Source: an uncultured delta proteobacterium (GTDB taxonomy: Bacteria; Desulfobacterota; Desulfomonilia; UBA1062). Taken from it: a stretch of 64,000 bases of DNA. Shown piece after piece: positions 1 to 16,262 of the stretch. Position 1 is the first letter of the stretch. Every line of letters starts with the position of its first letter. A program made the position numbers and the translations under genes. The stretch is taken from NCBI GenBank assembly GCA_963798485.1, contig CAWCTR010000002.1, forward strand, positions 1 to 64,000, read 5' to 3'. The notes beneath the pieces were generated by a model. It was not told where the DNA came from and ran no database searches. It saw only the letters and a program-made list of their open reading frames with translations.

Positions 1-2375
1 CCCGTCGTTCTTCAGCTCCAGACCATCTCCAAGACCTTTATGGATGACGTGCCTCCTGCCGTTGTTGTCCATGTTCATGCCCACCGAGCTCTTGATGATG
101 CCTGTGGCATCGGCATAGCGGTTGTTATAGACCACGAGCGAGCGCTCAACGCCATACCTGTTGGAATAGGCGAATATGTCTTCGTTCACATGTCCGTCCG
201 GCGTGCGCACATCATACATGACAAAGCTTTCCACACCGCTGAAGAGGCGGCGCTTTTTCAGGAGCGGGAAGATCTCGCGTTCATGACGCCTTACAAGGTT
301 CTCATCAATGGATTCTTCCCAATAGGCCCTCTTGTATTCCATGCCGTATTTTTCAGAGAACCCCTCGATCTGCCCATGGCCGAACATGGGCGGGCCCGGC
401 ATGGTTGCCATGAGTGTGGCCACGCCGAAATACTTATCGTCCTTGCCGAAACCGTGGACCGCAGGCTCTTCGTCAGGATTGTTCATGAAGTTGACGAACC
501 TCCTTAAGATCTCGGGGTTGAAGCGCAGCACGTTCTTCATGACATCGCGGTATTTGCTGTTCTCTTCGGTCTTGAGCATGTTCATGAAGGCGCTGTTATA
601 GACACGGTGCATGCCCAGAGACCTGACAAAGTAGCCCTCCATGAGCCAGAAGGCCTCTGCCAGGAGCAGGGTGTTGGCACCTCGGCTGAGCCCGGTCCAC
701 CAACTCCCTCCAGAATTCAACGGGAAAGAGTTTTTCGAACTCATCAGGCGATACCCCGTGGCCGGAGCGTGACGGTATGCCACCGCCATAGCCGGGAGGC
801 GGATACCAGAGACGCTGGAAGTGCCTCTTGGCAAGGGTCAGGCCGCATCGAACCGGATGAAAGGGAACTTCCTGGCAATGGCAATGGTCTGGTCGATGAC
901 CGCCTGGCGCACCTCGTGCTTCAAAAAGTCGAGCTGGGCCGTGTCGTTCCAGGGCATGCTCGTTCCGTCATTGCCATGGTAAAAATACCGGCTTTGACCG
1001 GTGTACCGGTCATGTCGCCGGAATACCACCGCGGCATCGCGCCTGTCCCAGTATCCGTCCTCAATTTGGATCTCCACGCGGTCTTCACCTGAAAGGTTGG
1101 CCCCGGTAACCGATAGCCCGGGAATGGGCTGTGGTCGAGCTGGATGAACCAGTCGGGATGTTCGATGACCCACTTGGAATAGATCCCCATATGGTTGGGC
1201 ACCATATCGGTGGCCATCCTTATGCCGTAACGCATGGCACGGCCTTTAAGGTTTTCGAAGGCCTCATCGCCGCCAAGTTCGGATGCAATGGAGTAATCAA
1301 AGATGGAATACGCCGAGGCGGCGGCCTCGGGGTTGCCGGTCATCTGCTTGATGGTGCGCGATGAAGGGCTCCGCTCCCATATTCCGATAAGCCATAGCCC
1401 GGTGAATCCCCATCTTGCGAGTATCTCCAGTTCCTCGTCAGGGATCTGATCGAGCCGCCAGATGTGCCTTTGATATTTGAGGCAGAGCTGGTGCAGCCAC
1501 ACATATACGCTCTTGGCCATAAGCACCAGGCTTGCCATCCAGTCAAGGTCCGCGCTGAACCGTTCAAGGTCTTCCAGGTCCTTCAGGGTGAAGAAAGGGA
1601 CAGGTGCGGTTCCCGGGCCAAGGAAGCGGGCCTTGGTCTCTTCCTTGATGAGGTCGAGACTGCGCAGGAGCTTGATGTAGAGCTCTGCCAAAAGAGATCC
1701 CCAGTGGAGCCTGATGTATTCGAGCTGGTCATAGAGAGAATGGGGTGCAGCCCTCAGCGGCGCCATCAGAAGATCGAGCAGGGTCTGTCCCATAGCCCCT
1801 AACGGCGGCTGTGTCCTGAAAAATTCATCGAGGCAGGAGATGATCTGGATATAAGGCGTTTCCTCTCTCAACTGTGAGTCGTCAAAGAGCTCCTTATAGG
1901 GCACCAGTGCAGGATTCTCATTGGAGATGAAGAGCATGAGCATCTCTTCCATGGCAATGAGCTTGTTTGAGACCCCTAACGTGTCGGATTGGAGATATTC
2001 CTTGACCGACAGTTTGCCCAGGTAAACATCCCTCGGTGGAAACTGTTCCAGGAAGAGCTCTAGGGTGTTATCCACCGCAGCGAGCTTGGAGGCTGCATAT
2101 CCGTAGGCATCCTTCATGATGTTCGGGTTAACCTGTCTGCGGTAAACCTCTATCATAAAGTGCAGCACCTCGTCGATCAAACCCATGGCATTGATATCAG
2201 AGGCGCGCACTGAGCGTTCAGGATGTGCTGCAACATCCCGGATATGGTTCATCTTCTCGGCAAATTCCCTTGCCGCATGCGCAGAGGCAAAGACCACATT
2301 GCCCGAAAAGGAAAACAACGTTTTATCGAACTGATACAGTTCCCGTGCTCTACGGGATATATGAAATTCAAACAT
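1..2375 (-). pseudogene. GH13 alpha-amylase family glycosyl hydrolase, frameshifted, runs off window start
   Basis: Motifs DMVPNH, MPWNDTAQLDF, IRFDAA, LAEAFWLMEGYFVR and FMNNPDE lie in successive frames. Single-base deletions near 1108, 840, 690 and 675 would restore one ORF. May be an assembly artefact. Confidence 0.8.
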
Positions 2376-2527
2376 AGATCCGGTTTCTCACCTTACGTCC
2401 ATCTCAAAAGAGGCTGGTAAAAGGTTTCATCCCCAATGCCATTCCAAATGCCCTTACCAACGGGTTGCAGCAGAATTTATGGTAAGGCTGCTCACCAGTC
2501 AAGATAAAAGCGCGGTATGGGTAAAGA

Positions 2528-5500
2528 TTATGGTGCCACGAATTGTATGATGAAACGTGCTATACCTACGAACATTATCCCTACGACCACAAAGAAATAC
2601 ATCACTTGTGAAACATGCCCCTTTGATACGGAACAGGATATAAAACAGCCCCCGCCTCCTCCACTGCCTCCTGTGCTCAGTGCAGCGGCAGCTTTTACCG
2701 ACACATGCACAGGTATTGTTTGAGGGCTGTTGGTAACATCTGCATCTGCAGAGGTGATGGTAATGTTCTGGTCATACTCCCCTGCAGCCAGGCCGGCGGT
2801 ATTTAAATGAACAGTGATCATGGTATGATCACTAGTCAAAGCCCCGTTTGCAGGTGAAACGGTGATCCAATTTGCATCGGCGGAAATGGAATAATTGAGC
2901 GTTCCGCTCCCCGAATTCCATATATCAAAACTTTGGTCTGCTGCATCAGATCCTTGTGTACATGTCACCGTGAGAGATGCAGGATCAATCGAGAAGGTTG
3001 ATTTTACCGTGCTGACGACGACCGGTTCACTCACAATCAGGCTCACGGGGATAGTCTGGGGGCTGTTTGACGCCCCTGGTGCGCTGATGGTTATAGTTGC
3101 CGGATATGTCCCTGAAACAAGGTCGGAGTTTGCAAAAGTGACAGTTATAACGCTATGCCCGCCAATGGATGTTCCGCTTGATGGTGTACATGACAGCCAC
3201 GAAGCGTCATCATAAATCGTATAATTAAGCGTCCCAGTTCCTGAGTTCCACACATCAAAAGACTGACTCGATGCATTGGATCCTTTCACGCACGTGACTG
3301 TGATGGATGCAGGGGTGTCTGAAATGGTTGGGACCGGTGCAGGGGCGTTCACTGTCAAGCTTACCGGTATAGTTTGTGGGTTATTTGATGCCCCTGAGGC
3401 ATTAATGGTAATGCTTGCCGGGTAACTCCCTGCTGTTAGCCCGGTTGTTGAATAACTGATCGTGATGGTGTTATGCCCGCTGCCACTGCACGTGGTAACG
3501 GATGTTCCGCTTGAGGGGATGCAAGAGAGCCAGGATTGACTGGATGCGATCGTATAACCCAAGGTCCCGCCCCCGGAGTTCCATATATTGAAAGATGTGC
3601 TTGACGGGTTGCTGCCTTGAATGCACGAAGCGGAAATTGTTGCAGGGGCATTATGAGCAATCACAGGACTGGGAGGGGGAGTTATATTTAAGGTCACAGG
3701 GAGAGTCTGTGGGTTATTGGATGCCATGGGATCGGTTATGGTAATAGTAGCTGAATAGTCCCCAGCGGTAAGGCCTGAAGCAGAGTAAAATACTGAGATA
3801 CTCTTTTTGTCATTTGGACCGGTTGAAGTCCCCGATGTTGCACAGGAAACCCATGATTGATCTGAAGATATCGTGTAATTCAGTGTACCGGCACCTGAGT
3901 TCCAGACATTGAATGTTTGGCCGGCTGCGTTACACCCCTGGGAACATGAGTTGGTTAGAGATAAAGGAGAAAATGATATGGTGGGAGTGAGGACCGTAAG
4001 ATTCACCGGGATAGTCTGAGGGCTGTTCGATGATCCTGCTGCGGTTATCGTGATAGTCGCCGAATAGTTCCCAGGAGGTAAGCCGGAGGTTATATAATTT
4101 ACGGTAATAGTCTGCTGATTTAATGGGCCTGATGAAGTGCCGCTTGCCGTGTCGCAGGATACCCAAGCCTGACCTGTTGTTATGGTGGTTGTAATTGTAT
4201 AATTGAGGGTTCCCGCCCCTGAGTTCCAGACTTGGAACGTTTGGGCAGGGGCATTATTTCCCACTACGCATGAATTAGTAAGAGAGGTTGGAGAAACTGC
4301 AATCGTAGGTGGAAGGACCGTAAGACTCACCGGGATAGTCTGAGGGCTGTTCGATGAACCTGGAGCGTTTATCGTGATAGTCGCCGAGTAGCTCCCTGGA
4401 GGCAAGCTGGAGGTTGAATAATTTACTGCAATAGCTTTCCTATCTGATGCACCTGATGAAATTCCGCTTGTAGTGTAGCAGGATACCCAATCCTGACCTG
4501 TTGTTATGGTGGTTGAAATCGTGTAATTCAGAGTCCCTGCCCCTGAGTTCCAGACTTGGAACGATTGGGCTGAGGCATTAGTCCCTGCCGGGCATGAATT
4601 AGTAAGAGAGGTTGGAGAGATCGCAATTGTAGGCGTAGGTGAAAGCACCGTGAGACTCACCGGGATAGTCTGAGGGCTATTCTGTGAGCCTTGTGCGGTT
4701 ATCGTGATATTGGCCGAGTAGTTCCCTGGGGCTAAGCTGGAGGTTGCATAATTTACTGTGATAGTATTCGTACTTGATGCACCTGATAATGTGCCGCTTG
4801 TTGTGTTGCAGGTTAACCACGCCTGATCTGTTGTAATTGTGTAATTGAGGGTCCCCGTGCCTGAGTTTGAGACTTGGAACGTTTGGGATGGGGCGATATT
4901 CCCTGTTACGCATGAATCAGCAAGAGAGGTTGGAGAGGAAGACAATATTTGTGGGATCGCGTAAGCAATATTCAGTGTCCAAAATTCGAAGCTATAATAT
5001 CCCGTTTGCCTGCCTATGCTATACTGACAATTATAACTCATGTTCATATCAAGGTGGAATATCCCGTTCGGTCTTCCTGAGGTTACACCCCAGCTGTTCA
5101 CTATGATCCAATAGGAGTTGTTGGGATCTTCATCATTGTAACCGACACAGAGCACCGCATGGCCCCAGCCAGTGGTATATCTGTGACCACAGGAGAAATC
5201 GGGATTCCAAATTATGTCTTCTGTTTGGTTTTCCCAGAAGGTATCAAAGTTAGTTCCATCTGCCGCTGTAGGCATGATAAAACCAAAATAAACAGCCTGA
5301 TTCTGATTGAGTATGCTCTTAATATTTGCAATGGCCGTAGCCTGAGAGACTGTTTGGGTCGGTATTGTTACAGCTGTTATCGATGAAATGGGATAATCAG
5401 GATTGGTACTGATAGATGCGCCTAGAGGACCACATGTGTCATTTCCAGACTGCCAGTTTGCATTTGTATTAGACCAGGGAATGGCCTGCTGATATCCGGG

Positions 5501-5950
5501 AGTAGAATAGAAATCGACCAGATAGGAAAGGTCGCCGCCTGCGCAACATGTTAACCCGGGTACCACCGTTGCATTTGAATTAAAATATTGGACAGAGAGG
5601 CTGTCGTATGTATTATCATTTACATCGAGGGCAATGGCCATTACCCCAGTCCCCGCCCACATCCAGCAGTCTCCGCACGAACCCTGGTCATATTCGGAAG
5701 GGATATAATCAAGATGGTTCAATAAACTCAATGATCCCGTAGATCCTGCGTTATACAGCACATTCTTTTTTATCTGTGCTTGTGGGGCGTCTTTATATCT
5801 CTGTTGCCAATTGATCAGGGTTTCACTGTCAGGCCGCATAACACCATGCGGCCTTCTGAGATCATCTGCTTGAGCAGCTTGAAAAATACCTGCCAAGAAT
5901 ATAAGGAACAGTATCGTAATATTGGCAAATGATTTCTTATAAGTAATCAT
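2528..5950 (-). CDS. Secreted papain-family (C1) cysteine peptidase with 7 BACON/Ig-like repeats and a GGGGGCFI-TM C-terminal sorting signal
   Basis: Signal peptide from MITYKK; catalytic motifs QGSCGDCW, GHAVLCVGY and VNSWG; seven ~105-110 aa repeats containing NSGxGTLxYxI; C-terminal GGGGGCFI plus hydrophobic helix. Confidence 0.85.
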   Translation of the reverse strand: MITYKKSFANITILFLIFLAGIFQAAQADDLRRPHGVMRPDSETLINWQQRYKDAPQAQIKKNVLYNAGSTGSLSLLNHLDYIPSEYDQGSCGDCWMWAGTGVMAIALDVNDNTYDSLSVQYFNSNATVVPGLTCCAGGDLSYLVDFYSTPGYQQAIPWSNTNANWQSGNDTCGPLGASISTNPDYPISSITAVTIPTQTVSQATAIANIKSILNQNQAVYFGFIMPTAADGTNFDTFWENQTEDIIWNPDFSCGHRYTTGWGHAVLCVGYNDEDPNNSYWIIVNSWGVTSGRPNGIFHLDMNMSYNCQYSIGRQTGYYSFEFWTLNIAYAIPQILSSSPTSLADSCVTGNIAPSQTFQVSNSGTGTLNYTITTDQAWLTCNTTSGTLSGASSTNTITVNYATSSLAPGNYSANITITAQGSQNSPQTIPVSLTVLSPTPTIAISPTSLTNSCPAGTNASAQSFQVWNSGAGTLNYTISTTITTGQDWVSCYTTSGISSGASDRKAIAVNYSTSSLPPGSYSATITINAPGSSNSPQTIPVSLTVLPPTIAVSPTSLTNSCVVGNNAPAQTFQVWNSGAGTLNYTITTTITTGQAWVSCDTASGTSSGPLNQQTITVNYITSGLPPGNYSATITITAAGSSNSPQTIPVNLTVLTPTISFSPLSLTNSCSQGCNAAGQTFNVWNSGAGTLNYTISSDQSWVSCATSGTSTGPNDKKSISVFYSASGLTAGDYSATITITDPMASNNPQTLPVTLNITPPPSPVIAHNAPATISASCIQGSNPSSTSFNIWNSGGGTLGYTIASSQSWLSCIPSSGTSVTTCSGSGHNTITISYSTTGLTAGSYPASITINASGASNNPQTIPVSLTVNAPAPVPTISDTPASITVTCVKGSNASSQSFDVWNSGTGTLNYTIYDDASWLSCTPSSGTSIGGHSVITVTFANSDLVSGTYPATITISAPGASNSPQTIPVSLIVSEPVVVSTVKSTFSIDPASLTVTCTQGSDAADQSFDIWNSGSGTLNYSISADANWITVSPANGALTSDHTMITVHLNTAGLAAGEYDQNITITSADADVTNSPQTIPVHVSVKAAAALSTGGSGGGGGCFISCSVSKGHVSQVMYFFVVVGIMFVGIARFIIQFVAP
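2690..4950 (-). repeat. Intragenic tandem repeat region, 7 units of ~320-330 bp
   Basis: Near-identical DNA such as caccgggatagtctgagggct recurs at ~4005, ~4328 and ~4658. Confidence 0.85.
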
Positions 5951-5979
5951 GTTGTTGTACCTATACTGTTTCCTGATTT

Positions 5980-6483
5980 TCACTTCAATGCCGGAAACTT
6001 GAAGATCATGGGGGTGCATGCACCTTTCGTGATAACCTTTAGGACACAATCAAGTTTCTTACCCGGTGTAATGTCATTCTTTCGAATGAACTCGGGGTCA
6101 GGATAAGACGAATCGGGAAGAAGGAGAACAAAATATCGAGACTCCACGTGAACAAAGGTCTCTTGAATCTTATTCTCCGGATAAAATGAATATTTTACTT
6201 CATATGACCCATCAGGCTTCTTTATGCTTGTTGAAGCACTGCCAAACTCTATCTTCTGAACAGATATTACCTCGGCCTTGCCTTTGTAGTCTTTGTACTC
6301 ACAAGGGCCGCCAACCTTTGCAGATGAGTCCTTTTGGATATTTATGTCAGAGGAATGTACTTGACAGCCGAATCCTAAGGTCAGCAGGAAAACAGTATAA
6401 AGGGCTACGAGCTGTTTATGAGGAAAAGTACTAAGACAATATTCGTTTGTGATTGGCTTTATCATTGTACTATATGTCGGCAT
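5980..6483 (-). CDS. Hypothetical exported protein or lipoprotein
   Basis: Hydrophobic stretch ending LGFGC; Cys motifs VGGPCEY and GACTP; start uncertain. Confidence 0.6.
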   Translation of the reverse strand: MPTYSTMIKPITNEYCLSTFPHKQLVALYTVFLLTLGFGCQVHSSDINIQKDSSAKVGGPCEYKDYKGKAEVISVQKIEFGSASTSIKKPDGSYEVKYSFYPENKIQETFVHVESRYFVLLLPDSSYPDPEFIRKNDITPGKKLDCVLKVITKGACTPMIFKFPALK

Positions 6484-6513
6484 AAGACTGCTTCATTATA
6501 ATGAATGAATCAA

Positions 6514-7365
6514 TTATCCGAAAGACTTCAATATCTTTTCTATGACCCGTTGGAAAGCCATGCCTGCAACACAGCTCATGTTATAGAGCATGAATGGTCT
6601 GCCGTTGTCGGTGTCCCGCACAACAGCAGGGTCAATAGGTATGGCACCGAGGAAAGGCACATTGAGCTCGTGGGCGGCACGTTCACCACCTCCTGCCTTG
6701 AACAGATCGATGGCATGCCCGCAGTGGGGGCAGGAAAAGGTGCTCATATTCTCGATAATGCCAAGCATGCTCAGGTTTAATGCCTTTGCGAACTCAACGC
6801 TCTTTCGTGAGTCCAGCAGGGCGACATCCTGGGGTGTCGTGACGATGACGGCATGGGGTGAGCGATCGGTCTGTGCCTGCCTTATGATCTGCGCAATAGA
6901 AAGCGGCTCGTCCCCTGTGCCGGGAGGGAGGTCGACGATGAGGAAATCGAGCTCACCCCATTTTACATCATTGATAAAATGCCTCATCACCGAATGTTTC
7001 ATGGGGCCGCGCCATATAATGGGCTGGTCCTTATTTTCCAGAAGGTTCCCTACGGAGACTACCTTAAGGTTTTTATAAACATCCACAGGGATCATATTCC
7101 CTTCTTCATCCCCCTTTATGGAGCAGTCCTCAATACCAAGGATCTTCGGGATATTGGGGCCATGGATGTCGCCGTCAAGGACGCCTACGGCATATCCCTG
7201 TTGCACCAGGCCTGCCGCCAGGTTTGCAGCCACAGTGGATTTGCCCACACCGCCCTTGCCGCTCATGACCATAATGGTGTGTCTGATGAGCCCTAGCCTC
7301 TCTTTGACCTTCTCTTTTCCTTCATCTTTTTTCTTGGCCCACGGTTTGTCTTTTATCTGAATCAT
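6514..7365 (-). CDS. Mrp/NBP35 (ApbC) family Fe-S cluster carrier ATPase
   Basis: SGKGGVGKST, DLPPGTGD, ENMS and CPHC motifs. Confidence 0.93.
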   Translation of the reverse strand: MIQIKDKPWAKKKDEGKEKVKERLGLIRHTIMVMSGKGGVGKSTVAANLAAGLVQQGYAVGVLDGDIHGPNIPKILGIEDCSIKGDEEGNMIPVDVYKNLKVVSVGNLLENKDQPIIWRGPMKHSVMRHFINDVKWGELDFLIVDLPPGTGDEPLSIAQIIRQAQTDRSPHAVIVTTPQDVALLDSRKSVEFAKALNLSMLGIIENMSTFSCPHCGHAIDLFKAGGGERAAHELNVPFLGAIPIDPAVVRDTDNGRPFMLYNMSCVAGMAFQRVIEKILKSFG

Positions 7366-7456
7366 ATGCTGCCCCGATTGCCTAAGATAGTATGATTGTA
7401 ACACTATGCTGCCTAACACAGATTCGATGTTACCTCAAGGACGTCAGGCATATTTA

Positions 7457-9022
7457 CTATTTGATAAGCGATATCACCTTGGTCTCGGGCCTGATCCTGC
7501 CCATAGAGGCATAGGCATAGTCCCGTACATACCATGAGGGATCTTCGCTTACAGCCTTGTCCAGGAGGTTTAATGCCTTATCCGACTGTATCTTGCCAAG
7601 CGCCCGGCATGCCTTGGTACGTACATTCATTTTGGGATCTTTCAATCGAGCCTCAATGGCGCTCAGAAGGGCCATGTCCATACGATCCCCGGCCTCAATC
7701 ACGGCATTTACCCGTACACGGGCGCTTGGGTCCTGCATCAACCTCACAAGGTCTTGCTTAGACAAGGCCCCCGGATAAGTGGCCACAACCGCATAGCGCA
7801 TCCTCTCCACAGGTGAGGCGGCATAGTCTGATATCTTTTCCGGATGAGACTTGAGCCGGGCCAGGAGATATGCCCCGTGGAACAGGGGCATAAAGACCGA
7901 CAGATAGGCAATAACAATTATGAACACAATTAACCTGCTCCGGGTAAAAATCATCTCCAGTGCAAGGGCAAACCATGACAAGATGAGGGCAGTAATGACG
8001 ATCAACGGTCCGGAAAAAAAGAAGAAGCCAATACCACCGCGCATCTGTTTATTGGGATCTATGCCCTTGCTCAGCTCGTCGATGATCCTGTTATTATCAT
8101 TCGCACTCAAGCTGTCATCCGGGAGCCTTACAGACCTGCAGTTCAAAGGCTGCCTGCTCACCGCAAAGGTTGCACCTTCAACCGAGCAAGGACTTTTTGA
8201 TCGAATCCAGAGGGTCCCGTGGGGTGTGTAACCCAGAGATTTTATATCATCAGAAAACGCAATCACGTTCTGGGACCTGGCGGAAATGGGTTTGATCACA
8301 TCAGCAGACAAGAGGGTATGATCATAATAGACGTCACTCAAGGCCTCGGTAACCCTCATGGAGAGCATGGAATCACGTATCGACATGAATGATGAGCCGG
8401 TTCCGATAATGATCGCCAGGGGGGCAATGATGATACCACAGAAGATAGCCCATCTTTTTATATTTATATTGATGCTTTTGTGTCCTGCTTTCCTAACCAT
8501 AAACAGCCATACAAGAGTGAAGACTAAGGGGCTCAGGAGCCCGAAACAGACGGATACCCAGGGCATGTCTTTGCTGAAGGTGAAAAATGTGCATACAAGG
8601 ACTGCCCCGGCAAAGGCAAAGAGGTCCCGGCGTACAAAACGGCCTGAAACCCATGCCGGTAAGGTGAGAGCCATGCACACAAGGGCATTCAGGACACCGA
8701 GGGTCATTCCGAAAAAAAGGGCACTGGCAAGCTGATGGCCCGGCGCTATCAGATGGACATCATCCGGATTGATGAGAACCGTCATACCGAAACGGGCCAA
8801 GAGGGCCGTCTCGGCTGTTATCCGAAGGGCATGCTCCCTGACAAAGACATATCCGAAAGCGGTATACAGCACAATACAGGCAACACTTCCCCAGAAAGAT
8901 GCCCTGTACCATCCGTTAATATCTCTATGCGCCCCGGCAGGACGTAACCACACTGACAGATTGGGGAATATACCCGTTTTCCGGCGGATAGAGGGCTCAG
9001 GACTTTCCAAGAGCTCCTCCAT
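7457..9022 (-). CDS. Polytopic membrane protein with C-terminal HEAT repeats
   Basis: Multiple hydrophobic helices; HEAT-like repeats DPSARVRVNA, DPKMNVRTKA, DPSWYVRDYA. Confidence 0.75.
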   Translation of the reverse strand: MEELLESPEPSIRRKTGIFPNLSVWLRPAGAHRDINGWYRASFWGSVACIVLYTAFGYVFVREHALRITAETALLARFGMTVLINPDDVHLIAPGHQLASALFFGMTLGVLNALVCMALTLPAWVSGRFVRRDLFAFAGAVLVCTFFTFSKDMPWVSVCFGLLSPLVFTLVWLFMVRKAGHKSININIKRWAIFCGIIIAPLAIIIGTGSSFMSIRDSMLSMRVTEALSDVYYDHTLLSADVIKPISARSQNVIAFSDDIKSLGYTPHGTLWIRSKSPCSVEGATFAVSRQPLNCRSVRLPDDSLSANDNNRIIDELSKGIDPNKQMRGGIGFFFFSGPLIVITALILSWFALALEMIFTRSRLIVFIIVIAYLSVFMPLFHGAYLLARLKSHPEKISDYAASPVERMRYAVVATYPGALSKQDLVRLMQDPSARVRVNAVIEAGDRMDMALLSAIEARLKDPKMNVRTKACRALGKIQSDKALNLLDKAVSEDPSWYVRDYAYASMGRIRPETKVISLIK

Positions 9023-9042
9023 CGCCGAAGTCCACTGTATGA

Positions 9043-9540
9043 TCAGCCTATTGACGGGACCTTATTCTTATACGCATTCAAGAGGCCTGCTATCTCCTCA
9101 TTGGACTTGACGCTCTTCCTTCCTCTCACCGCCTCAACATCTGACCTTGCCGTCCAGATATTCTTAAAACTCTTTGCCTGCTTTGTGAACAGGATAAAGT
9201 TGGCAACGGCATCATCGCAGACATGGGTGAACCTGCGGTTGTCAAAAGACGCGATGTCTCTGAGCCTTTCCACCAGGTTCTTGTCCAAACGCATGACATA
9301 GCGTATCCGCTTCTCGGATGTATCGTTCCTTGGGCCTACATATCTTCTCTTTTGGCGCAAAGGTACTTTCCCATCCAACTCACTTTCTTTTTTGAAGATA
9401 TAAGCATCAAGGGCAGCGCCTACAAAATCGACCATAGCGATGTTCAGCATCCGGGAGATGACCCTGAGCTCACTCAAGTTGTTTGGCTTAAAGTACATCA
9501 TAAACCGTGAAGAAACCTTTTCCTCTTTTGCGCGCATCAT
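9043..9540 (-). CDS. Hypothetical protein, possibly tandem ribbon-helix-helix DNA-binding protein
   Basis: Basic 165 aa ORF with RBS (gaggaggtg); two beta-helix-helix-like segments. Confidence 0.55.
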   Translation of the reverse strand: MMRAKEEKVSSRFMMYFKPNNLSELRVISRMLNIAMVDFVGAALDAYIFKKESELDGKVPLRQKRRYVGPRNDTSEKRIRYVMRLDKNLVERLRDIASFDNRRFTHVCDDAVANFILFTKQAKSFKNIWTARSDVEAVRGRKSVKSNEEIAGLLNAYKNKVPSIG

Positions 9541-9646
9541 AGATGCACCTCCTCGTTCTTTCCAATCAAGATATCTTCGTATAAATCATTACCAGGCTCA
9601 ACGCCTGTCTTATACCTATAAAATAATATGCCTTTACGTATAACCA

Positions 9647-10204
9647 TCATACTTCCATAATCTCTTTTTCTTTTATTGCAAGCTGTTCATCAATGAGTTT
9701 GATGCAGTTGTCGGTGAGGTCCTGCACCTTGTCCTGGGCAACCTTGAGCTCGTCTTTGTTGATCTCTTTTTCCTTCTCAAGGTCTTTTAAAAGGGTATTG
9801 GCATCACGACGATGGTTGCGGGCCTCTACACGAAATTCTTCGGCTGTTTTCTTTATCATTTTTACAAGATCCCTTCGCCTCTCTTCGTTCAGAGGGGGGA
9901 TGGGGACACGGATGATTCTCCCGTCGTTGTTGGGGGTAAGACCAAGTTCGGATTTCATTATTGCCTTCTCGATAGGTGCCAAGGCGCCTTTGTCCCAGGG
10001 CTGTATGGTGATGAGACGCGCCTCCGGTACAGCCATGGTTGCGAGTTGATTCATGGGGGTGGGTGTGCCGTAGTAATCCACCATAATGCCGTCTAAGATG
10101 CCGATGGATGCCCGGCCTGTGCGAACCTTTTGAAGTGAACCCTTCATGGAATCTACGGTCTTGTTCATGCCGTGCTTCATGTCATTGAGGATCTCATCAA
10201 CCAT
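9647..10204 (-). CDS. frr: Ribosome recycling factor
   Basis: RTGRAS, YYGTPTP and IPPLNEERR motifs; conserved gene order. Confidence 0.98.
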   Translation of the reverse strand: MVDEILNDMKHGMNKTVDSMKGSLQKVRTGRASIGILDGIMVDYYGTPTPMNQLATMAVPEARLITIQPWDKGALAPIEKAIMKSELGLTPNNDGRIIRVPIPPLNEERRRDLVKMIKKTAEEFRVEARNHRRDANTLLKDLEKEKEINKDELKVAQDKVQDLTDNCIKLIDEQLAIKEKEIMEV

Positions 10205-10920
10205 TAATTATCCCTCCTCGCTCTGACGACTGATCCGATCTCCTCTCCTTTCAGGAGTCTTGACAAGCTTTCATGCTCAAAAATATTGATTACCCTCACT
10301 TCAAGCCCGTTTTCACGGCACAGGGAAATCGCAGATGCATCCATGACGCCAAGGTTCATCTTAAGGACCATATCAAAGTCCAGCTCTTTGAAAAACCGGG
10401 CATCTTTATGTTTCATGGGGTCTTTATCATAAATGCCGTTTACCTTCGTGGCCTTTATGAGTACATCAGCCCTGATCTCAAGTGCCCTCAATGCCGCCGT
10501 GGTATCGGTAGTGAAAAATGGACTGCCGGTTCCACCTGCAAAGATTACAACCCTTCCCTTCTCAAGATGACGGATCGCCCTCTCGCTTACAACGGGTTCA
10601 GCCATGGAGGGTATGTGGATAGCGCTCATGATCCTGCACTGGCAACCCTGGGCAATAAGTGCGCTCTTTAAGGCCAGGGCGTTGATCACGGTAGCAAGCA
10701 TGCCCATGTGATCGGCGCTGACCCGGTCGATCACGGATGTGGCGCTTATCCCCCTGAACATGTTTCCCCCGCCGATAACAAGGCCGACTTGTGCCCCGGC
10801 ATCAATAGCTGCGTTCACCAATGCAACAAAGCCTTTTAATGTCGCATCATCAATGCCGAAACCCTTGCCTCCGGCGAGTGCCTCTCCGCTAACCTTGAGC
10901 AGTATTCGTTTATAATGCAA
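10204..10920 (-). CDS. pyrH: Uridylate kinase
   Basis: LLKVSGEAL, GGGNMFRG, FFTTDT; start placed at TTG 10920 after GAGAGG (ORF extends to 10947). Confidence 0.97.
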   Translation of the reverse strand: MHYKRILLKVSGEALAGGKGFGIDDATLKGFVALVNAAIDAGAQVGLVIGGGNMFRGISATSVIDRVSADHMGMLATVINALALKSALIAQGCQCRIMSAIHIPSMAEPVVSERAIRHLEKGRVVIFAGGTGSPFFTTDTTAALRALEIRADVLIKATKVNGIYDKDPMKHKDARFFKELDFDMVLKMNLGVMDASAISLCRENGLEVRVINIFEHESLSRLLKGEEIGSVVRARRDN

Positions 10921-10933
10921 GGGGACCCTCTCG

Positions 10934-11533
10934 TCAGATATCTTCACCCACCTGATACCGAACGAATCGTCTTACCAGGCACTTTTCTCCGGTTTTTGCC
11001 ATTAATTCATCCAAGAGTTGCTTTATGGTCCTGTCCTGATCCTTCACAAAAGGCTGGTCTATAAGACAACGCTCGGAGTAGAATTTGGTGAGCTTGCCTT
11101 CTACGATCTTCTCTATCACCTTCTCGGGCTTGCCTGTCTTGAGCGCCTGATCTTTGAGGATTTCTTTTTCTTTATCAAGGACCTGTTGCGGCACTTCATC
11201 CCTGGTAACCCACTCGGGGTTTGCAGCAGCGATCTGCATGGAAACGTCTTTGACGAAGTTGTTGAAGTCATCCGACTTTGCAACAAAATCACTCTCGCAG
11301 TTCACCTCTACAAGCACGCCGATCTTCCCGCCCATATGGATGTATGCAGCCACCGTACCCTGGCCGGCTTGCCTGCCGGAGCGTTTGTTGGCAACATCAA
11401 TGCCTTTCTTCCTGAGGGCCTCCACTGCCTTTTCAAAATCCCCATTCGTCTCTTCAAGGGCCTTCTTACAGTCCATCATGCCGACGCCGGTCTTATCTCT
11501 GAGTTTTTTTACCACATCCGATGTTATCTGCAC
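10934..11533 (-). CDS. tsf: Translation elongation factor Ts (short form)
   Basis: LRDKTGVGMMDCKKAL and EVNCESDFVA. Confidence 0.98.
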   Translation of the reverse strand: MQITSDVVKKLRDKTGVGMMDCKKALEETNGDFEKAVEALRKKGIDVANKRSGRQAGQGTVAAYIHMGGKIGVLVEVNCESDFVAKSDDFNNFVKDVSMQIAAANPEWVTRDEVPQQVLDKEKEILKDQALKTGKPEKVIEKIVEGKLTKFYSERCLIDQPFVKDQDRTIKQLLDELMAKTGEKCLVRRFVRYQVGEDI

Positions 11534-11554
11534 TCTCTACCTCCAACAACGTTT

Positions 11555-12445
11555 CTATGCTGATTCTTCCTCGCCGGTGGGGTTCACGGACTCTGCCGTT
11601 ATCTCAGCATCCTTTACCTTCGCCGGCTTGCTGTCTTTAACGATGATCTCGATCTCATGCTCAAGCCCCTTGCCCATAACCTCGGTGGAAGCAGCCTTCT
11701 GCTTGGTCTGGACCTTCTCATCGGCCGTGGCCTCTTTTACCTCGGTGGCCAGCTTTTCCTGCCAGAGCTGGCCGCCCTGATCCACTGCATCCGCTATCTT
11801 GGAGGTAAACAGCCTGATAGCCCTTATGGCATCGTCATTACCGGGAATGACATAGTCGATGAGCGTGGGATCGCAGTTGGTATCTACAATGGCGACTATG
11901 GGTATCTTCAGCTTCTTGGCCTCCCGGACCGCTATATACTCACGAGAGGGGTCAACAATGAAAAGGACATCAGGAAGACCGCCCAAATCCTTTATCCCAT
12001 GGAGCGAGCGCTCCAGCTTCATCTTGTGGCGCTTCATCATGATCTGTTCCTTCTTGGGATAGTTCTCGATATTGCTGTTATCGATGATTGATTCAAGCCA
12101 CTTGAGCTTGTCCACGCTCTTGCGGATGGTGGTGAAATTTGTGAGTGTGCCGCCGAGCCAGCGGTAATTCACGTAAAAGGCCCCTACCCTCTGGGATTCT
12201 TCCTCGATGGCGTCCTGTGCCTGTTTCTTGGTGCCTACGAACAAGACCTTGCCGCCGTTGGCAGCTGTTTCACGGATAACATCGCATGCCTTTTCGAAGA
12301 GCTTTTCGGTCTTCTGGAGATCGATGATATGGATGCCGTTACGTGAACCGAAAATGTAGGGTTTCATCTTTGGATTCCACCTCGGTGTCTGATGACCGAA
12401 ATGAACACCAGCCTCGAGCAGCTGTTTCATGGTGACGACTGACAT
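11555..12445 (-). CDS. rpsB: 30S ribosomal protein S2
   Basis: [30 protein letters not shown]. Confidence 0.99.
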
Positions 12446-12540
12446 GTACTACCTCCTTGGTTTTTCCTCCGCCCTACAAGGCTGATCCTTGGTTTGCAAG
12501 GACACCTCAGACCTTGTTATACTACGGGGCGTGTGTGCTG
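12446..12540 (-). promoter_or_regulatory. Probable rpsB (S2) autoregulatory leader
   Basis: 5' UTR starts CACACACGCCCC, contains GC-rich stems and GGCGGAGGAAAAACC before the SD, resembling S2 leaders. Confidence 0.55.
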
Positions 12541-12580
12541 GTTGAGCCATTTACCATACAAGAATCATGGTTTCAAGGGC

Positions 12581-13144
12581 TTAATGCTGTAACTTGAAAA
12601 GAACTGACAATTTTTTGAATAAATCCGTTCCGGCCTTTTCCATAAACATGAAGGCGATTGTCTCGGTGGGATATACGAGCACCCCGAGACGCACCATGGC
12701 ATCGAGCGAGGTCCCCCTGTCATGCGCCCTTCTGGAGCAGACAGCATCACCGGCAATAACAACGCAATAGCCGTCATTAAAAAGGTCAATCGCGGTCTGC
12801 ATGACACACACATGCGTCTCAATGCCGATAATGACAGCCGTCTTCCTGCCTGTTGATTTAATGGCCTTCTTTATCCCCTCATCCCTATAGCAGCTGAAGA
12901 AGAGCTTCTCATGCCTGCGTATGCCCTCAAGGTGTCCTGCCGCATCAGCTATGGTCGGTCCCAGCCCCTTGGGGTATTGCTCGGACACAATAATCGGGAT
13001 CTGACATGACTTGGCCGTCTCTATGAGGATCACACTATTCTTAACATAGGTTTCCTTGAGTTGGTCTTCCATGGCGGCATGGAGCCTCTCCTGGATGTCT
13101 ACTACAATGAGAAAACATTCATCTTTTTTAAGAAATGCACTCAA
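12581..13144 (-). CDS. Isochorismatase family hydrolase
   Basis: VVDIQERL, EQYPKGLG, GIETHVCV; TTG start after GGAGG. Confidence 0.9.
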   Translation of the reverse strand: MSAFLKKDECFLIVVDIQERLHAAMEDQLKETYVKNSVILIETAKSCQIPIIVSEQYPKGLGPTIADAAGHLEGIRRHEKLFFSCYRDEGIKKAIKSTGRKTAVIIGIETHVCVMQTAIDLFNDGYCVVIAGDAVCSRRAHDRGTSLDAMVRLGVLVYPTETIAFMFMEKAGTDLFKKLSVLFKLQH

Positions 13145-13257
13145 GAATACCTCCATCATGACCTTTTTATGTTAAGCCCTACCGGCCCTGTCAATGGACT
13201 TCTCTACCGGATGGGGAAGTTGCCGGTCAATGGCAAATTATTCATAAGAGATAGGAA

Positions 13258-13929
13258 TTATTTGCAGAGATACCCGAGCAGGTCCCTTGGATCATCCAGG
13301 AGAATCCTTGCACCGTTATTTATCAACTGTTGCTTATCCTGGTAACCCCATAAGGCGCCGAACGCTGCCATACCGGCCCTGCCGGCAGTCTCCATGTCGA
13401 TATCGCTGTCGCCTACAAAGATGCAGTGCCGCGGGTCTGCTCCCATACGGTCCGCACAAATACGGGCACCGGTCGGATCGGGCTTTCTAGGGATATCCGG
13501 GGAAAGACCCCTTACTTCGGCAAATTTCCAGTAGGGCAGCAATGAGGCGGCCATAGCCTTGGTAAATGAATCGAGCTTGTTGGAAAGGATGGAGAGCGCC
13601 ATGCCCCTTTCCGTCAGGCCATCGAGCAATTCGGGGATACCGGGAAAAGGCCTTGATTTGACAGACCACCGAACGTTGTATTCCTCCTTCATGAGATCCA
13701 CACTCCGGGCAATGGTATGGGCGGTGCGTTGCCCCTCAGGCAGCGACCTCTCGGCCAGGACCTCTATCCCGTCCCCCACGAACGCCCGATAACTGCTTAC
13801 CGGATGTACAGGAAATCCGAGACTATTTAATACCGCGTTCATGGAGTCGGCAATGTCCTCAATGGTGTCGAGCAAGGTGCCGTCCATGTCAAAGATCACG
13901 GCCTGATACTTATTCTCAAAGTGGTTCAT
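13258..13929 (-). CDS. HAD family hydrolase (phosphoglycolate phosphatase-like)
   Basis: FDMDGTLLDT, KPDP, VGDSDID. Confidence 0.9.
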   Translation of the reverse strand: MNHFENKYQAVIFDMDGTLLDTIEDIADSMNAVLNSLGFPVHPVSSYRAFVGDGIEVLAERSLPEGQRTAHTIARSVDLMKEEYNVRWSVKSRPFPGIPELLDGLTERGMALSILSNKLDSFTKAMAASLLPYWKFAEVRGLSPDIPRKPDPTGARICADRMGADPRHCIFVGDSDIDMETAGRAGMAAFGALWGYQDKQQLINNGARILLDDPRDLLGYLCK

Positions 13930-14160
13930 AGCGACAGAATACAGAATCCAGGGGCCGGAATCCAGATGAAAGGTAAATCTCTGTTTTCTCCGTGACTTTC
14001 CTTATCATGGATACCCCTACTCCCCATAATCCTTATGCATCATCTTTCACCATGATTCCGTTCAATCTAAGGGAGTGTCATTTCTAAGTCATTGAATATG
14101 GTCAAACGGGGTTTGGTAAAATATAAAACAGGGTCACAATGGAAATGGAGCTTAATGAGA

Positions 14161-14835
14161 GTCGAGTAGCCCGGGGGAATCTCACCCCCAGGCCCTCACA
14201 GAACCGGACGTGAGACTCTCACCTCATCCGGCTCCTGCCGTCCAGTCATCAGTAAAGAACATGACGACTTTACCTTATCCATAAGCTCCTCCCATTGCTG
14301 GTTGACTCACGAACAAGGTCGGACAGCTCAGCCCCTTCGCTCCATCCGCATTACCGGACTTCATCACTACTACGGACTGATCCGCCCCTGCGCTCTGCAT
14401 CGGTACTCTCGTCTTCATGGGTCCTCCACTTCAACTTGTCCCTTAGCATCAGAGCGCCAGGTTCCCACGTTCCGCATGAAAGCCCAAACCAGGCTCGCGC
14501 CACCTTTCTGCCGGCCACCATCTGGGCAGTAAACAGGTTCCCCCCAGACTCTGTCCCGGACCCGATAAAGTAGCCCGGTTTCGATGACGTCTTTAACTTT
14601 TCGACAGCTCATCAGTGGTTCACTCTCGTTCGCCTTCCTGGTCCTCACCTGCCGAGGTCTTGCCTCGACTTTTCCTGAACCGCTCACCACCTGGGATCTT
14701 ATCCCCACGCAGCGTCAGGCGGTTTGGGATCTGATCCTGTAACCCGATCCCGAGGGGCCTCCCCTCATCTCCCATGCAGCATGGCTGCTCCAATGTAGCC
14801 TTTGCAGACTACCTCTTCGCGCCTTCGTGGCGCAC
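14161..14835 (-). mobile_element. Group II intron (IIB-like) with intron-encoded protein ORF deleted
   Basis: 5' end GTGCGCCACG; domains V/VI GAGCCGGATGAGGTGAGAGTCTCACGTCCGGTTC...GGGCTACTCGAC; EBS1 TTTATCG (14563-14569) complements IBS1 CGATAAA; EBS2 AGTTA (14594-14598) complements IBS2 TAACT. Confidence 0.93.
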
Positions 14836-14848
14836 TTTATCGCAGTTA

Positions 14849-15110
14849 TCAGGGGAGATGGAGAGAAAAGACCTCTTTTGCCTCTCCAATTTTTTCCTGA
14901 AGCAATCTGAGATGGTAATTCACCCGGATCCGGGTGATCTTGAGTATACCATAGACATTCTCTATATCACCTTCGACTTCTGCCCAGTATTTATCCTCAG
15001 GTGTGGGAATCTTTTTCCCGGCCAGTATCGTGGCCAGTGTTCCCATCATTCAGGTAGCAACTGCTGCTACGATATGATCAAGGGTCGCAGCGTGCTCCTT
15101 TCAGGTTCGA
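14849..15110 (-). pseudogene. Truncated OsmC-family (seleno)protein remnant
   Basis: EHAATLDHIVAAVAT-[TGA 15050-15052]-MMGTLA...EGDIENVYGILKITRIRVNYHL; upstream frameshift, N-terminus and C-terminal CP motif missing. Confidence 0.7.
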
Positions 15111-15213
15111 CTCTTTCAACATCATGGATCGCGTGGCTAATCTCGATTACGCCAGGCTCCATAAGAACCACCATGTCTCCCTGACAATTCTTAGCGAACA
15201 ACAAGCACTCGTT

Positions 15214-15867
15214 TTATTTCTGAACACCAGCCTTTTTGTAATACTCATCCTTTTTTACCATCTCTCTGATCCCCTTCAGTGATTTGAAAGGTATATCCAC
15301 AGCCATGAAATTTACAAGCGAAACAGGTATATTCCCTCCAAGATCGGATCTATTCGTGAAGGCCACGGTCGTTTTATTTTTATTAATCCTTGTAAGAACA
15401 TAACCCCCACCGATATCCAACATACGGACATAATCTTTATTCCGCGGCACTATACCGTCAGAGTCCTTGATGTAGTTGAGCGAGATGGTATGTTCAACTT
15501 TTTCCGGGGAATCATAATTTAAGGTATAAAATACCACATCCCTGTCCGCCACAGGCCAGCCGGGGCTGATGACCAAATAGACGACTGAATTATTTTTTTC
15601 ATCCCTTTTGATCAACCGGCTTTCCTTGCAGTTTGGAAACCACTTGGTGTATGATGGGAGGTCTTTAAGGACCTCAAGAACGACCTCCCAGGGAGCATCA
15701 ACATCGCAGACTCCTTTGAAGATAGCAAAATCTTTACCTTGAGGATCTTTCATTGTGTATACCTTTATTCCACCCGACTCTTTAGCAAGTTTCCATTGGT
15801 CTTCAGCATGTACATCGATGCAGAGGAGAAAGACCATTGCCATGAGAAATACTACTGTTTTTTTCAT
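15214..15867 (-). CDS. Secreted START (lipid-binding) domain protein
   Basis: Signal peptide MKKTVVFLMAMVFLLCIDVHA; WKLAKESGGIKVY, WPVADRD, DLGGNIP. Confidence 0.85.
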   Translation of the reverse strand: MKKTVVFLMAMVFLLCIDVHAEDQWKLAKESGGIKVYTMKDPQGKDFAIFKGVCDVDAPWEVVLEVLKDLPSYTKWFPNCKESRLIKRDEKNNSVVYLVISPGWPVADRDVVFYTLNYDSPEKVEHTISLNYIKDSDGIVPRNKDYVRMLDIGGGYVLTRINKNKTTVAFTNRSDLGGNIPVSLVNFMAVDIPFKSLKGIREMVKKDEYYKKAGVQK

Positions 15868-16262
15868 GAATACCTCCTGCGTGTAGAGTGGATTACATTC
15901 TTCGGTAGTTCCATTTATCGGGTGGTGACGGTTCGCATCCACCTTCAATCTTACATTAAATGATTCTTTAAGGATCTGCAAAGAGAAAGCTGCCTAAAGG
16001 CTTTCGACTATCTCAATCTTTAACGTCAACCGTTGACTGTAAGGCAATATGCTGCTAAAATATTTAAAACCATAGATGATGTGCCAGGTGCAACGCTCTG
16101 GTATAACGAATCTTACTTCATATGTTTCAAACCAAGATCTTCGGTTCCCAGGCATCATAACCAAAAATAAACCGAAGTGATATCCACCCGAGCCGTTTTT
16201 TTTGTGAATATGCCTTTATGCGATAGTCAGTTTACTCCGGATGAATTCCTTATAACTCATCC

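Follow-up and report, generated by a model that had tools for sequence, protein, structure and literature searches.

A complete 675-nt group II intron without a maturase gene, a probable non-autonomous retroelement of an uncultured deltaproteobacterium

The stretch of DNA analyzed here (hereafter, the window) consists of positions 1-64000 of contig C2 (CAWCTR010000002.1) in the metagenome-assembled genome (MAG) of an uncultured deltaproteobacterium. On its minus strand, the window contains a 675-nt group II intron that lacks the open reading frame (ORF) for the intron-encoded protein (IEP), i.e. the reverse transcriptase (RT)/maturase. Such an element raises the question whether it is a decayed remnant or a ribozyme that moves with the help of a protein encoded elsewhere, as suggested in a preliminary description of this DNA. 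The evidence collected here makes it very probable that this is a non-autonomous group II intron that lost its ORF by one deletion and spread by retrohoming, using the IEP of sister copies. Judging from sequence comparison, this IEP would act on the ORF-less RNA, and the window copy may be spliced and currently active.

The intron, its deletion and its relatives in the genome

The intron starts with GUGCG (14835-14831) and ends with GAC (14163-14161), in agreement with the GUGYG and AY ends of group II ribozymes. These boundaries are identical in all four complete copies found in the genome and are fixed by an exact empty paralog of one of them, that on contig C7. At the Rfam gathering thresholds, exactly two families are detected in the window, both within the intron, namely, RF01999 (group-II-D1D4-2; 14766-14647, 106.8 bits, E = 5e-21, model positions 1-118 of 118) and RF00029 (domain V/VI; 14236-14161, 64 bits compared with the gathering score of 40, E = 2.9e-10, whole model). 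The candidate branch point A of domain VI is unpaired in both the Rfam alignment and the consensus fold and lies 7 nt from the 3′ end. The two exon-binding sites (EBS) pair perfectly with the intron-binding sites (IBS) of the 5′ exon, in seven of seven positions for EBS1/IBS1 and in five of five for EBS2/IBS2; the 11-nt hairpin loop that presents EBS2 comes from folding by hand, and RNAalifold leaves this loop unclosed. A complete intron with these termini, a domain V with the AGC triad, a domain VI ending in AC and both pairings had been reported in the preliminary description, and all of the coordinates given there hold on the minus strand; the RF00029 search that it proposed yields the whole-model match.

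The ORF check found no RT/maturase-type ORF in the window intron, which accordingly is not an autonomous element. Alignment to a full-length relative, by BLAST segments plus direct reading, shows that ~1.2 kb of the parental ORF is gone, with the ribosome-binding site (RBS) GGGAGGAG at 14293-14286, the IEP start codon at 14282-14280, the first 20-30 nt of the ORF and its last ~15 nt retained. The C-terminal remnant (...ACT GGA CGG CAG) is in frame with the ATG. Because the parental stop codon TAG, which abuts domain V, became CAG in the window copy, a 28-codon stub (14282-14196) runs to the TGA (14198-14196) in the linker between domains V and VI. The stretch from the RBS to the domain V junction is 58 nt long in all four complete copies of the genome and differs among them at 1-3 positions. 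The earlier claim that domain IV keeps the RBS and ATG with nearly the entire RT/maturase deleted is thus borne out, only the stub being left, whereas the out-of-frame IEP C-terminus FFTDDWTAGAG* put forward with it has no match in the full-length relative and is a chance reading, because the true C-terminal remnant aligns in frame with the parent. In the consensus fold, the N- and C-terminal remnant codons pair with each other as a short hairpin (helix 28) that may be the base of the original stem of the ORF-bearing part of domain IV (DIVb).

The genome (G000), a MAG of 32 contigs and 4.30 Mb (97.5% complete, 6.96% contamination), was searched in full with the 675-nt sequence using blastn. 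Besides the window copy, this search yields three complete ORF-less copies with 96.9-98.8% identity to it, two 3′-truncated copies, two full-length relatives, a decayed copy on contig C3 and two distant relatives (67-69%); the ORF adjoining one of the truncated copies (C14c) gave no match in a Pfam scan. The four complete copies are all intergenic, and their flanks are unrelated beyond ~14-16 nt upstream and 1-2 nt (T) downstream, the shared upstream bases being exactly IBS2, one linker base and IBS1.

The full-length relative on contig C18 matches the window intron in three pieces (query 1-572, 591-641 and 642-675), with ~1.2 kb and ~1.9 kb of extra DNA between them; that on contig C10 has the same arrangement until the contig stops inside domain V. 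The first insert is an intact ORF for a 417-aa IEP, identical in the two relatives (C18:1811-3061 and C10:124121-125371). C18 is a twintron, because its second insert, located inside domain VI, is itself an intron (RF02005, 144 bits) that encodes an RT/maturase. The genome thus holds both things that the preliminary description proposed to look for, namely, copies at unrelated loci with the same deletion junction and full-length relatives with an intact IEP ORF, and its view of the element as a probable non-autonomous retroelement that may be mobilized by an IEP encoded elsewhere is supported by them; the single copy with no related IEP in the genome that, together with a lack of splicing, it took as the sign of decay in place is not what is found.

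Several side observations concern the other introns and RTs of this genome. It encodes eight RVT_1 matches that represent at least five IEP lineages. The RF02005 family intron, with its own 447-aa RT/maturase, is present in three copies (C18:3105-5044, C7:265206-267167 and C3:1914-3908, the last of these without a long ORF), each time in domain VI of an outer intron, right after the ...ACGGUUCUGAG(R)G of domain V. Because the outer introns represent at least two families, other introns seem to be the homing targets of the RF02005 intron. The C18 twintron is directly followed downstream by a gene for a DDE transposase (DDE_5, DDE_Tnp_1; C18:5279-6637).

In Pfam searches, the 417-aa IEP shows only two domains, RVT_1 (positions 68-288, 156 bits), with YADD at position 225, and GIIM (315-392, 54.8 bits); the absence of DNA-binding and endonuclease domains is as expected of class D. 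Its C-terminus, LGRIAKRNVDLFVLW, agrees with six of the eight fixed positions (L, A, L, F, V and W, with V for P and L for H) of the class D motif LX3AX3PXLF[V/A]HW given in the excerpted text of PMC4615759. Among plasmid sequences searched with tblastn, the best matches are to Bradyrhizobium (64%) and to multi-copy IEPs of Sinorhizobium meliloti (61.6%; the identity of the latter with RmInt1 itself is not established). The intron is structurally IIB and, by these sequence features, most likely of bacterial class D (RmInt1-like). The tentative class D label of the preliminary description therefore stands on the parental IEP, not on the leftover termini from which it had been drawn.

The fold of the ribozyme was assessed on an alignment of seven complete ORF-less copies, four from this genome and three from related genomes (see below), and two copies of a 70%-identical sister family, for which RNAalifold predicts 211 pairs. 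Standard pairs form in 98.8% of the cells, compared with 36-44% when the partners are slid by 1-3 columns, and 61 of the 211 pairs are changed on both sides, compared with 3-6 after sliding; none of 500 shuffles reaches the observed values, with the caveat that the structure has the advantage of having been predicted on this very alignment, and that most of the double changes separate only two lineages. Some of them, however, distinguish individual ORF-less copies (columns 650/670 in domain VI, and 168/184). In domain V, the 15 pairs of helix 29 form in 100% of the cells (nine of nine sequences), and helix 30 of domain VI has four pairs with compensatory changes, including CG to GC among ORF-less copies. 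The RNA fold that the preliminary description asked for is thus supported, in particular, by the 61 pairs changed on both sides.

Table 1. Coordinates of the intron, its parts, its copies and relatives, and empty targets (C2 positions refer to the window; C, contigs of the same genome; G007, the genome of a sister species)
Feature	Coordinates	Strand	Evidence
Complete ORF-less group II intron, 675 nt, GUGCG...CUCGAC (window copy, 100%)	C2:14161-14835	-	sequence, Rfam, empty paralog; blastn
Domain I core	14647-14766	-	RF01999 match, gathering score 36
EBS2 AGUUA in 11-nt loop GAAAAGUUAAA	14594-14598	-	sequence, hand fold
EBS1 UUUAUCG in 9-nt terminal loop	14563-14569	-	sequence, consensus fold
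Domain IV stub: RBS, ATG, 28-codon in-frame remnant ORF	14196-14293	-	alignment to full-length relative
Domain V, 34 nt, AGC triad 14233-14231, 2-nt bulge	14201-14234	-	RF00029, consensus fold
Domain VI, unpaired A 14167 (candidate branch point)	~14164-14198	-	Rfam alignment, consensus fold
5′ exon target: IBS2 UAACU 14848-14844, 1-nt linker, IBS1 CGAUAAA 14842-14836	14836-14848	-	
First 3′ exon base T, candidate IBS3	14160	-	T in 9/9 distinct occupied sites
5′ flank: OsmC-like gene fragment with in-frame TGA	14849-15112	-	homology to gene of relative G002
Complete ORF-less copy, 98.8% identity to window copy	C14:505640-506314		blastn
Complete ORF-less copy, 98.4% identity to window copy	C7:625386-626060		blastn
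Complete ORF-less copy, 96.9% identity to window copy	C17:79233-79907		blastn
3′-truncated copy, query 1-388	C14:382112-382499		blastn
3′-truncated copy, query 1-186	C14:57327-57513		blastn
Full-length relative, 94.4% over first 572 nt	C18:1258-5079		blastn
Full-length relative, 94.4% over first 572 nt	C10:123568 to contig end		blastn
ORF-less copy in G007	L031:3011-3685	+	
ORF-less copy in G007	L030:3002-3677	-	
Empty perfect target	C7:253618		
Empty perfect target	C9:75502		
Empty perfect target	C9:80518		
Empty perfect target	C9:83698		
Empty perfect target	C30:241785		

The homing site and the window locus

The pairing of EBS1 with IBS1 extends over seven of seven positions in all seven complete ORF-less copies, i.e. 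the four in this genome, two in the sister species G007 and one, with a single G-U pair, in the sister species G003, as well as in the truncated copy C14b. In G007, EBS1 is GUUAUCG and IBS1 is CGAUAAC, compared with UUUAUCG and CGAUAAA in the window genome; on the sequence level, this difference is a compensatory change between the intron and its target. The unpaired linker base at position -8 varies (G at three sites, T at three sites), whereas the paired bases are constant. The five-of-five pairing of EBS2 is found in C2, C14a (the complete copy on C14) and C7; in C17, G007 and the full-length copies, the loop is GAAAAGAUACA.

In the 4.3-Mb genome, there are 12 occurrences of the 13-nt target motif TAACTNCGATAAA, compared with ~0.5 expected from the length alone by our own arithmetic; the intron follows the motif at five sites and is absent from the other seven. 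One of the latter is the empty paralog of the filled C7 site (C9:75464-75585), which is contiguous, without the intron between ...CGATAAA and TCGG..., and aligns with the C7 5′ flank over its last 51 nt (86%) and with the 3′ flank over its first 71 nt (94%). An exact empty site is thus available for the C7 copy; at the window locus itself, for which the preliminary description proposed to look for the empty site in relatives or RNA-seq, no empty site is readable (see below).

The motif forms the 5′ portion of a ~70-nt repeat that is dispersed in the genome. A census with a profile built by iterated nhmmer (E<=1e-3) gives at least 62 copies in the genome, one of them in the window (16186-16120, minus strand). 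The repeats are intergenic: ATG-initiated ORFs of at least 120 aa make up 79% of contigs C9 and C17, yet none of the 62 copies overlaps an ORF of this kind. There are two repeat subtypes, ...CGATAAA|TTGGCGC... and ...CGATTTC|TTCTCGG... The full-length C10 copy occupies the homologous position of the CGATTTC subtype, where EBS1 pairs in only four of seven positions, which suggests that features beyond EBS1 guide insertion. A second intron family, with 5′ GUGUG and likewise detected by RF01999, uses the same repeat at other positions, namely, the repeat 3′ end on C9:74201 and the opposite strand of the repeat in the relative G002. The repeat may be MITE-like (akin to a miniature inverted-repeat transposable element) or regulatory. 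Two other readings of it were dropped. A palindromic or hairpin nature had been expected, and the fold energy is not significant (mean z of -0.27, with 10% below -2, for minimum free energy versus 100 mononucleotide shuffles in the best 30 of the 62 copies). The integron attC reading fails because the ends RYYYAAC/GTTRRRY, which we take to be the attC consensus, are not conserved in the repeat alignment.

Taken together, these features point to the following mechanism. An ancestor would have lost ~1.2 kb of the RT/maturase ORF through an in-frame deletion in distal domain IV that spared the entire ribozyme together with the RBS, the ATG and a few codons at either end of the ORF. The shortened RNA would be transcribed and spliced with the 417-aa endonuclease-less IEP from full-length sisters (C18, C10), then reverse-spliced into DNA and copied into cDNA by the same IEP, reaching new sites by retrohoming. 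The choice of DNA site would depend on EBS1/IBS1 (7 bp), EBS2/IBS2 (5 bp, with the 1-nt linker) and the T at +1. The preferred landing site is one fixed position near the 5′ end of the ~70-nt repeat, which supplies many near-identical targets.

The window intron is in the sense orientation with respect to both of its neighbors. It is followed by a gene for a HAD hydrolase (13929-13258, HAD_2, E = 1e-28) and preceded by the OsmC-like gene fragment, which aligns with the intact gene of G002 only over query 289-550, ends 15 nt before the intron, lacks the C-terminal FCPAAQ... part, has a frameshifted N-terminus, and stops where the repeat and the intron begin. Because the intron lies between a gene fragment and the HAD gene, no host gene needs it to be spliced. 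A search with 13600-15400 in 41 genomes (40 relatives plus the window's own) for an orthologous empty site never recovered the two flanks together: the OsmC-like part matches in G002 and G003, and the matches to the HAD part lie in other places. No such site is readable because the 5′ flank homology stops 15 nt before the intron. The in-frame TGA of the fragment is present also in the intact G002 homologue (L024:1370-1838), which suggests that the OsmC-like gene may encode a selenoprotein; the TGA presumably occupies the position of the catalytic Cys expected in the OsmC family.

The assembly contains further versions of these loci. C3:1-18103 aligns with window 1-16089 at 99.65% identity for 14.2 kb downstream of the intron, and at 87.9% upstream, including the intron, with the switch falling inside the intron 3′ end; the C3 intron has a mutated 5′ splice site and carries an inner intron. 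Two contigs begin with the last 33 nt of an intron (C15:1-633 and C21:1-33), and in C15, a domain VI of the parental type is followed by 600 nt of 3′ flank with 100% identity to the flank of the ORF-less copy on C7, so the same site may hold different intron versions in the population. The variants on C3 and C15 point to strain mixture, to recombination between copies or at the intron, or to chimeric assembly.

Of 20 candidate public sequencing runs, none contained half of the sampled words. The contigs of four runs (two DNA and two RNA libraries) include no joint of the flanks, and such contigs cannot show its absence. The RNA-library contigs hold pieces of the intron, one ending at 14835; being contigs of a repeated element, they are uninformative on transcription and splicing. 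A loose contig end at 14843 in one of the DNA runs resembles what we take to be sequencing adapter.

Relatives and competing explanations

Among 185,579 species genomes, the window's own being left out, the ORF-less junction is found at only three loci, two in G007 and one in G003; these are ORF-less forms of 675/676 nt, with 92% identity, at non-orthologous sites. No RVT_1 match and no IEP homologue was found in G007 (10 contigs, 93% complete), so its two intact-looking ORF-less copies appear there as orphan ribozymes. A tree of the first 560 nt (12 rows, not including the two truncated copies) unites the full-length copies with the ORF-less copies of the window genome (100/98); the ORF-less copies from G007 and G003 fall outside this group. 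As a separate observation, the sister family in G002 (70% identical, GUGUG) has two ORF-less copies of 640/641 nt (L033:2326-2965, plus strand; L034:1841-2481, minus strand) with a 53-nt stub, MSIAKPSYTIG*, and one truncated copy (L033:4537-5150); the G002 genome has a single RVT_1 match (77 bits).

Several observations weigh against the spread of one deleted form in trans. No full-length copy is seen both complete and uninterrupted, given that C18 is interrupted in domain VI and C10 ends in domain V; what is demonstrably intact in them is the IEP ORF alone. Identity between the ORF-less RNA and the copies that encode the IEP is only 94%, so the compatibility of the 417-aa IEP with this RNA is a presumption. 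The EBS2/IBS2 pairing, by hand count, extends over only three to four of five positions in C17, G007, G003 and the full-length copies. At the window site, only the first ~16 nt of the repeat are recognizable and the 3′ flank is not repeat-like; together with the broken upstream gene, this partial repeat indicates that the locus was rearranged, and the window copy provides no clear case of simple insertion into an intact repeat. Contigs C3 and C15 represent alternative versions of the C2 and C7 loci, and with such redundancy in a MAG, the copies may not all share one cell. Finally, at least five perfect targets with the following T are empty, which implies low or past activity.

This last point leads to the alternative that spread of the ORF-less form in trans belongs to the past and that the window copy and its sisters are now inert. 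Several observations fit this possibility, which is rather unlikely: apart from the unfilled targets, the copies differ by 1-3%, so that none is brand new, two are 3′-truncated, all are intergenic and thus need not be spliced for the sake of the host, and G007 keeps its two copies with 0 RVT_1 matches. On the other side of the ledger, none of the four complete copies has lost a catalytic or pairing element, the helices are preserved despite the differences among the ORF-less copies, and the genome encodes an intact IEP twice. Passive spread at the DNA level, whereby the intron is carried along with duplicated or recombined ~70-nt MITE-like repeats or larger segments, could explain why the intron is always in the same repeat family, why C3 and C15 join the same flank to different intron versions (a hint of recombination or strain mixture) and why the locus of the window copy is rearranged. 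It is, however, highly improbable, given that the intron copies are 97-99% identical while the surrounding repeat halves differ strongly, that the 3′ flanks (TCTCATT.., TTTATGA.., TCGGTGG.. and TCAATGG..) are essentially unrelated, that an empty paralog lacks exactly the intron and that EBS1 and IBS1 co-vary.

The least probable explanation, by a narrow count, is independent decay in place, i.e. that each copy was once full-length and lost its ORF separately. The tree described above fits this scenario, with the full-length copies inside the window-genome group and the G007/G003 copies excluded; the ORF-less copies form one clade in 0% of the bootstrap trees, only 8 of the 18 nt in the junction core are identical between the two ORF-less groups (our own count), and the sister family in G002 has an ORF-less form of its own with a similar stub. 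The choice is between two or more losses of the ORF at almost the same position and a tree blurred by intragenomic gene conversion; unless the tree is misled in this way, ORF loss probably recurred across lineages. Within the genome, by contrast, all four complete copies share one junction and no differing breakpoints are seen, so a single deletion followed by spread is far more economical. Trans-mobilization of one deleted form thus remains the preferred explanation for the copies in the window genome.

A broader proposal, which we regard as unlikely, is that two or more intron families have the repeat as their common landing pad, and that ORF-less ribozymes recur in these families and persist as cross-species lineages. 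The family of the window intron would use one position of the repeat, and the GUGUG family two others, one of these on the opposite strand. The ORF would be lost perhaps when the RT skips the DIVb stem at its base, which would yield stubs that hardly vary in length (58 and 53 nt), and the stripped ribozymes would persist even without a detectable RT, as in G007, relying on IEPs that come and go horizontally.

Known systems and implications

The closest precedent is found in Thermosynechococcus elongatus, for which the excerpted text of PMC2882425, the source of all comparisons with this organism, describes 17 ORF-less TeI3 introns that all share one DIVb deletion and are mobilized by the IEPs of related introns (the TeI4 'driver'), as shown experimentally. 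The present introns resemble TeI3 in the identical deletion breakpoints of ORF-less copies at different sites (here, in four of four complete copies), in the N- and C-terminal ORF remnants, in the good EBS/IBS pairing at many, mostly intergenic sites, and in the presence of related ORF-containing introns that supply the IEP (here, a candidate driver with identical ORFs, in a MAG); twintrons, too, are present in the same genome in both cases. The differences are that the closest IEP to that of TeI3 is EcI5, whereas the one here looks like class D and lacks an endonuclease domain; that there are four complete and two truncated ORF-less copies here rather than 17; that the remnant frame is broken by an extra U in TeI3, whereas the deletion here is in frame; that the targets here lie in one dispersed ~70-nt repeat; and that mobility in trans, experimental in TeI3, is inferred here.

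With the class D (IIB3) introns RmInt1, RmInt2 and Sr.md.I1 of Sinorhizobium, as covered by the excerpted text of PMC4615759, the present family shares an IEP of nearly the same size without DNA-binding and endonuclease domains (~419 aa there and 417 aa here), targets in repeated DNA (ISRm2011-2 and inverted repeats of insertion sequences in Sinorhizobium) and imperfect EBS2/IBS2 pairing, a mismatch that retrohoming tolerates there, as well as, with RmInt1, the single-nucleotide linker between IBS2 and IBS1; the C-terminal motif is matched in part, at six of the eight fixed positions. Unlike these introns, which carry their own ORF, the window intron is ORF-less; the host is a deltaproteobacterial MAG lineage rather than a rhizobium, and the target is a short non-coding repeat rather than an insertion sequence. 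A natural ORF-less lineage is not described in the excerpted text of PMC4615759, and no search aimed at ORF-less class D introns was made. The nested introns on C18, C3 and C7:265206, but not the window copy, are reminiscent of the Methanosarcina acetivorans introns cited in the excerpted text of PMC2882425, where nested arrays are mentioned, in that one group II intron homes into another, here the RF02005 intron in domain VI. The insertion point here is in domain VI, directly after domain V, whereas in the T. elongatus twintrons it is in the IEP ORF, between the first two ATGs (PMC2882425).

The ORF-less, trans-mobilized lifestyle is therefore already known, and the window intron is a new example of it from another intron class and another phylum. 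In the annotation of this genome, no gene should be assigned to the element itself, its small internal ORFs are spurious, and what lies upstream is only part of a gene. To our knowledge, well-documented natural cases of ORF-less introns that use the RT of a sister intron are few. The combination of a defined deletion, a candidate driver IEP, a short-repeat homing site, and filled and empty versions of the site amounts to a ready-made system for mobility assays. Introns of this kind that ride on the RT of a sister provide a bacterial model for the evolution of spliceosomal-type introns with a common splicing apparatus and, more generally, for the way non-autonomous retroelements arise; the present case contributes a lineage from uncultured deltaproteobacteria that lacks the endonuclease and probably belongs to class D.

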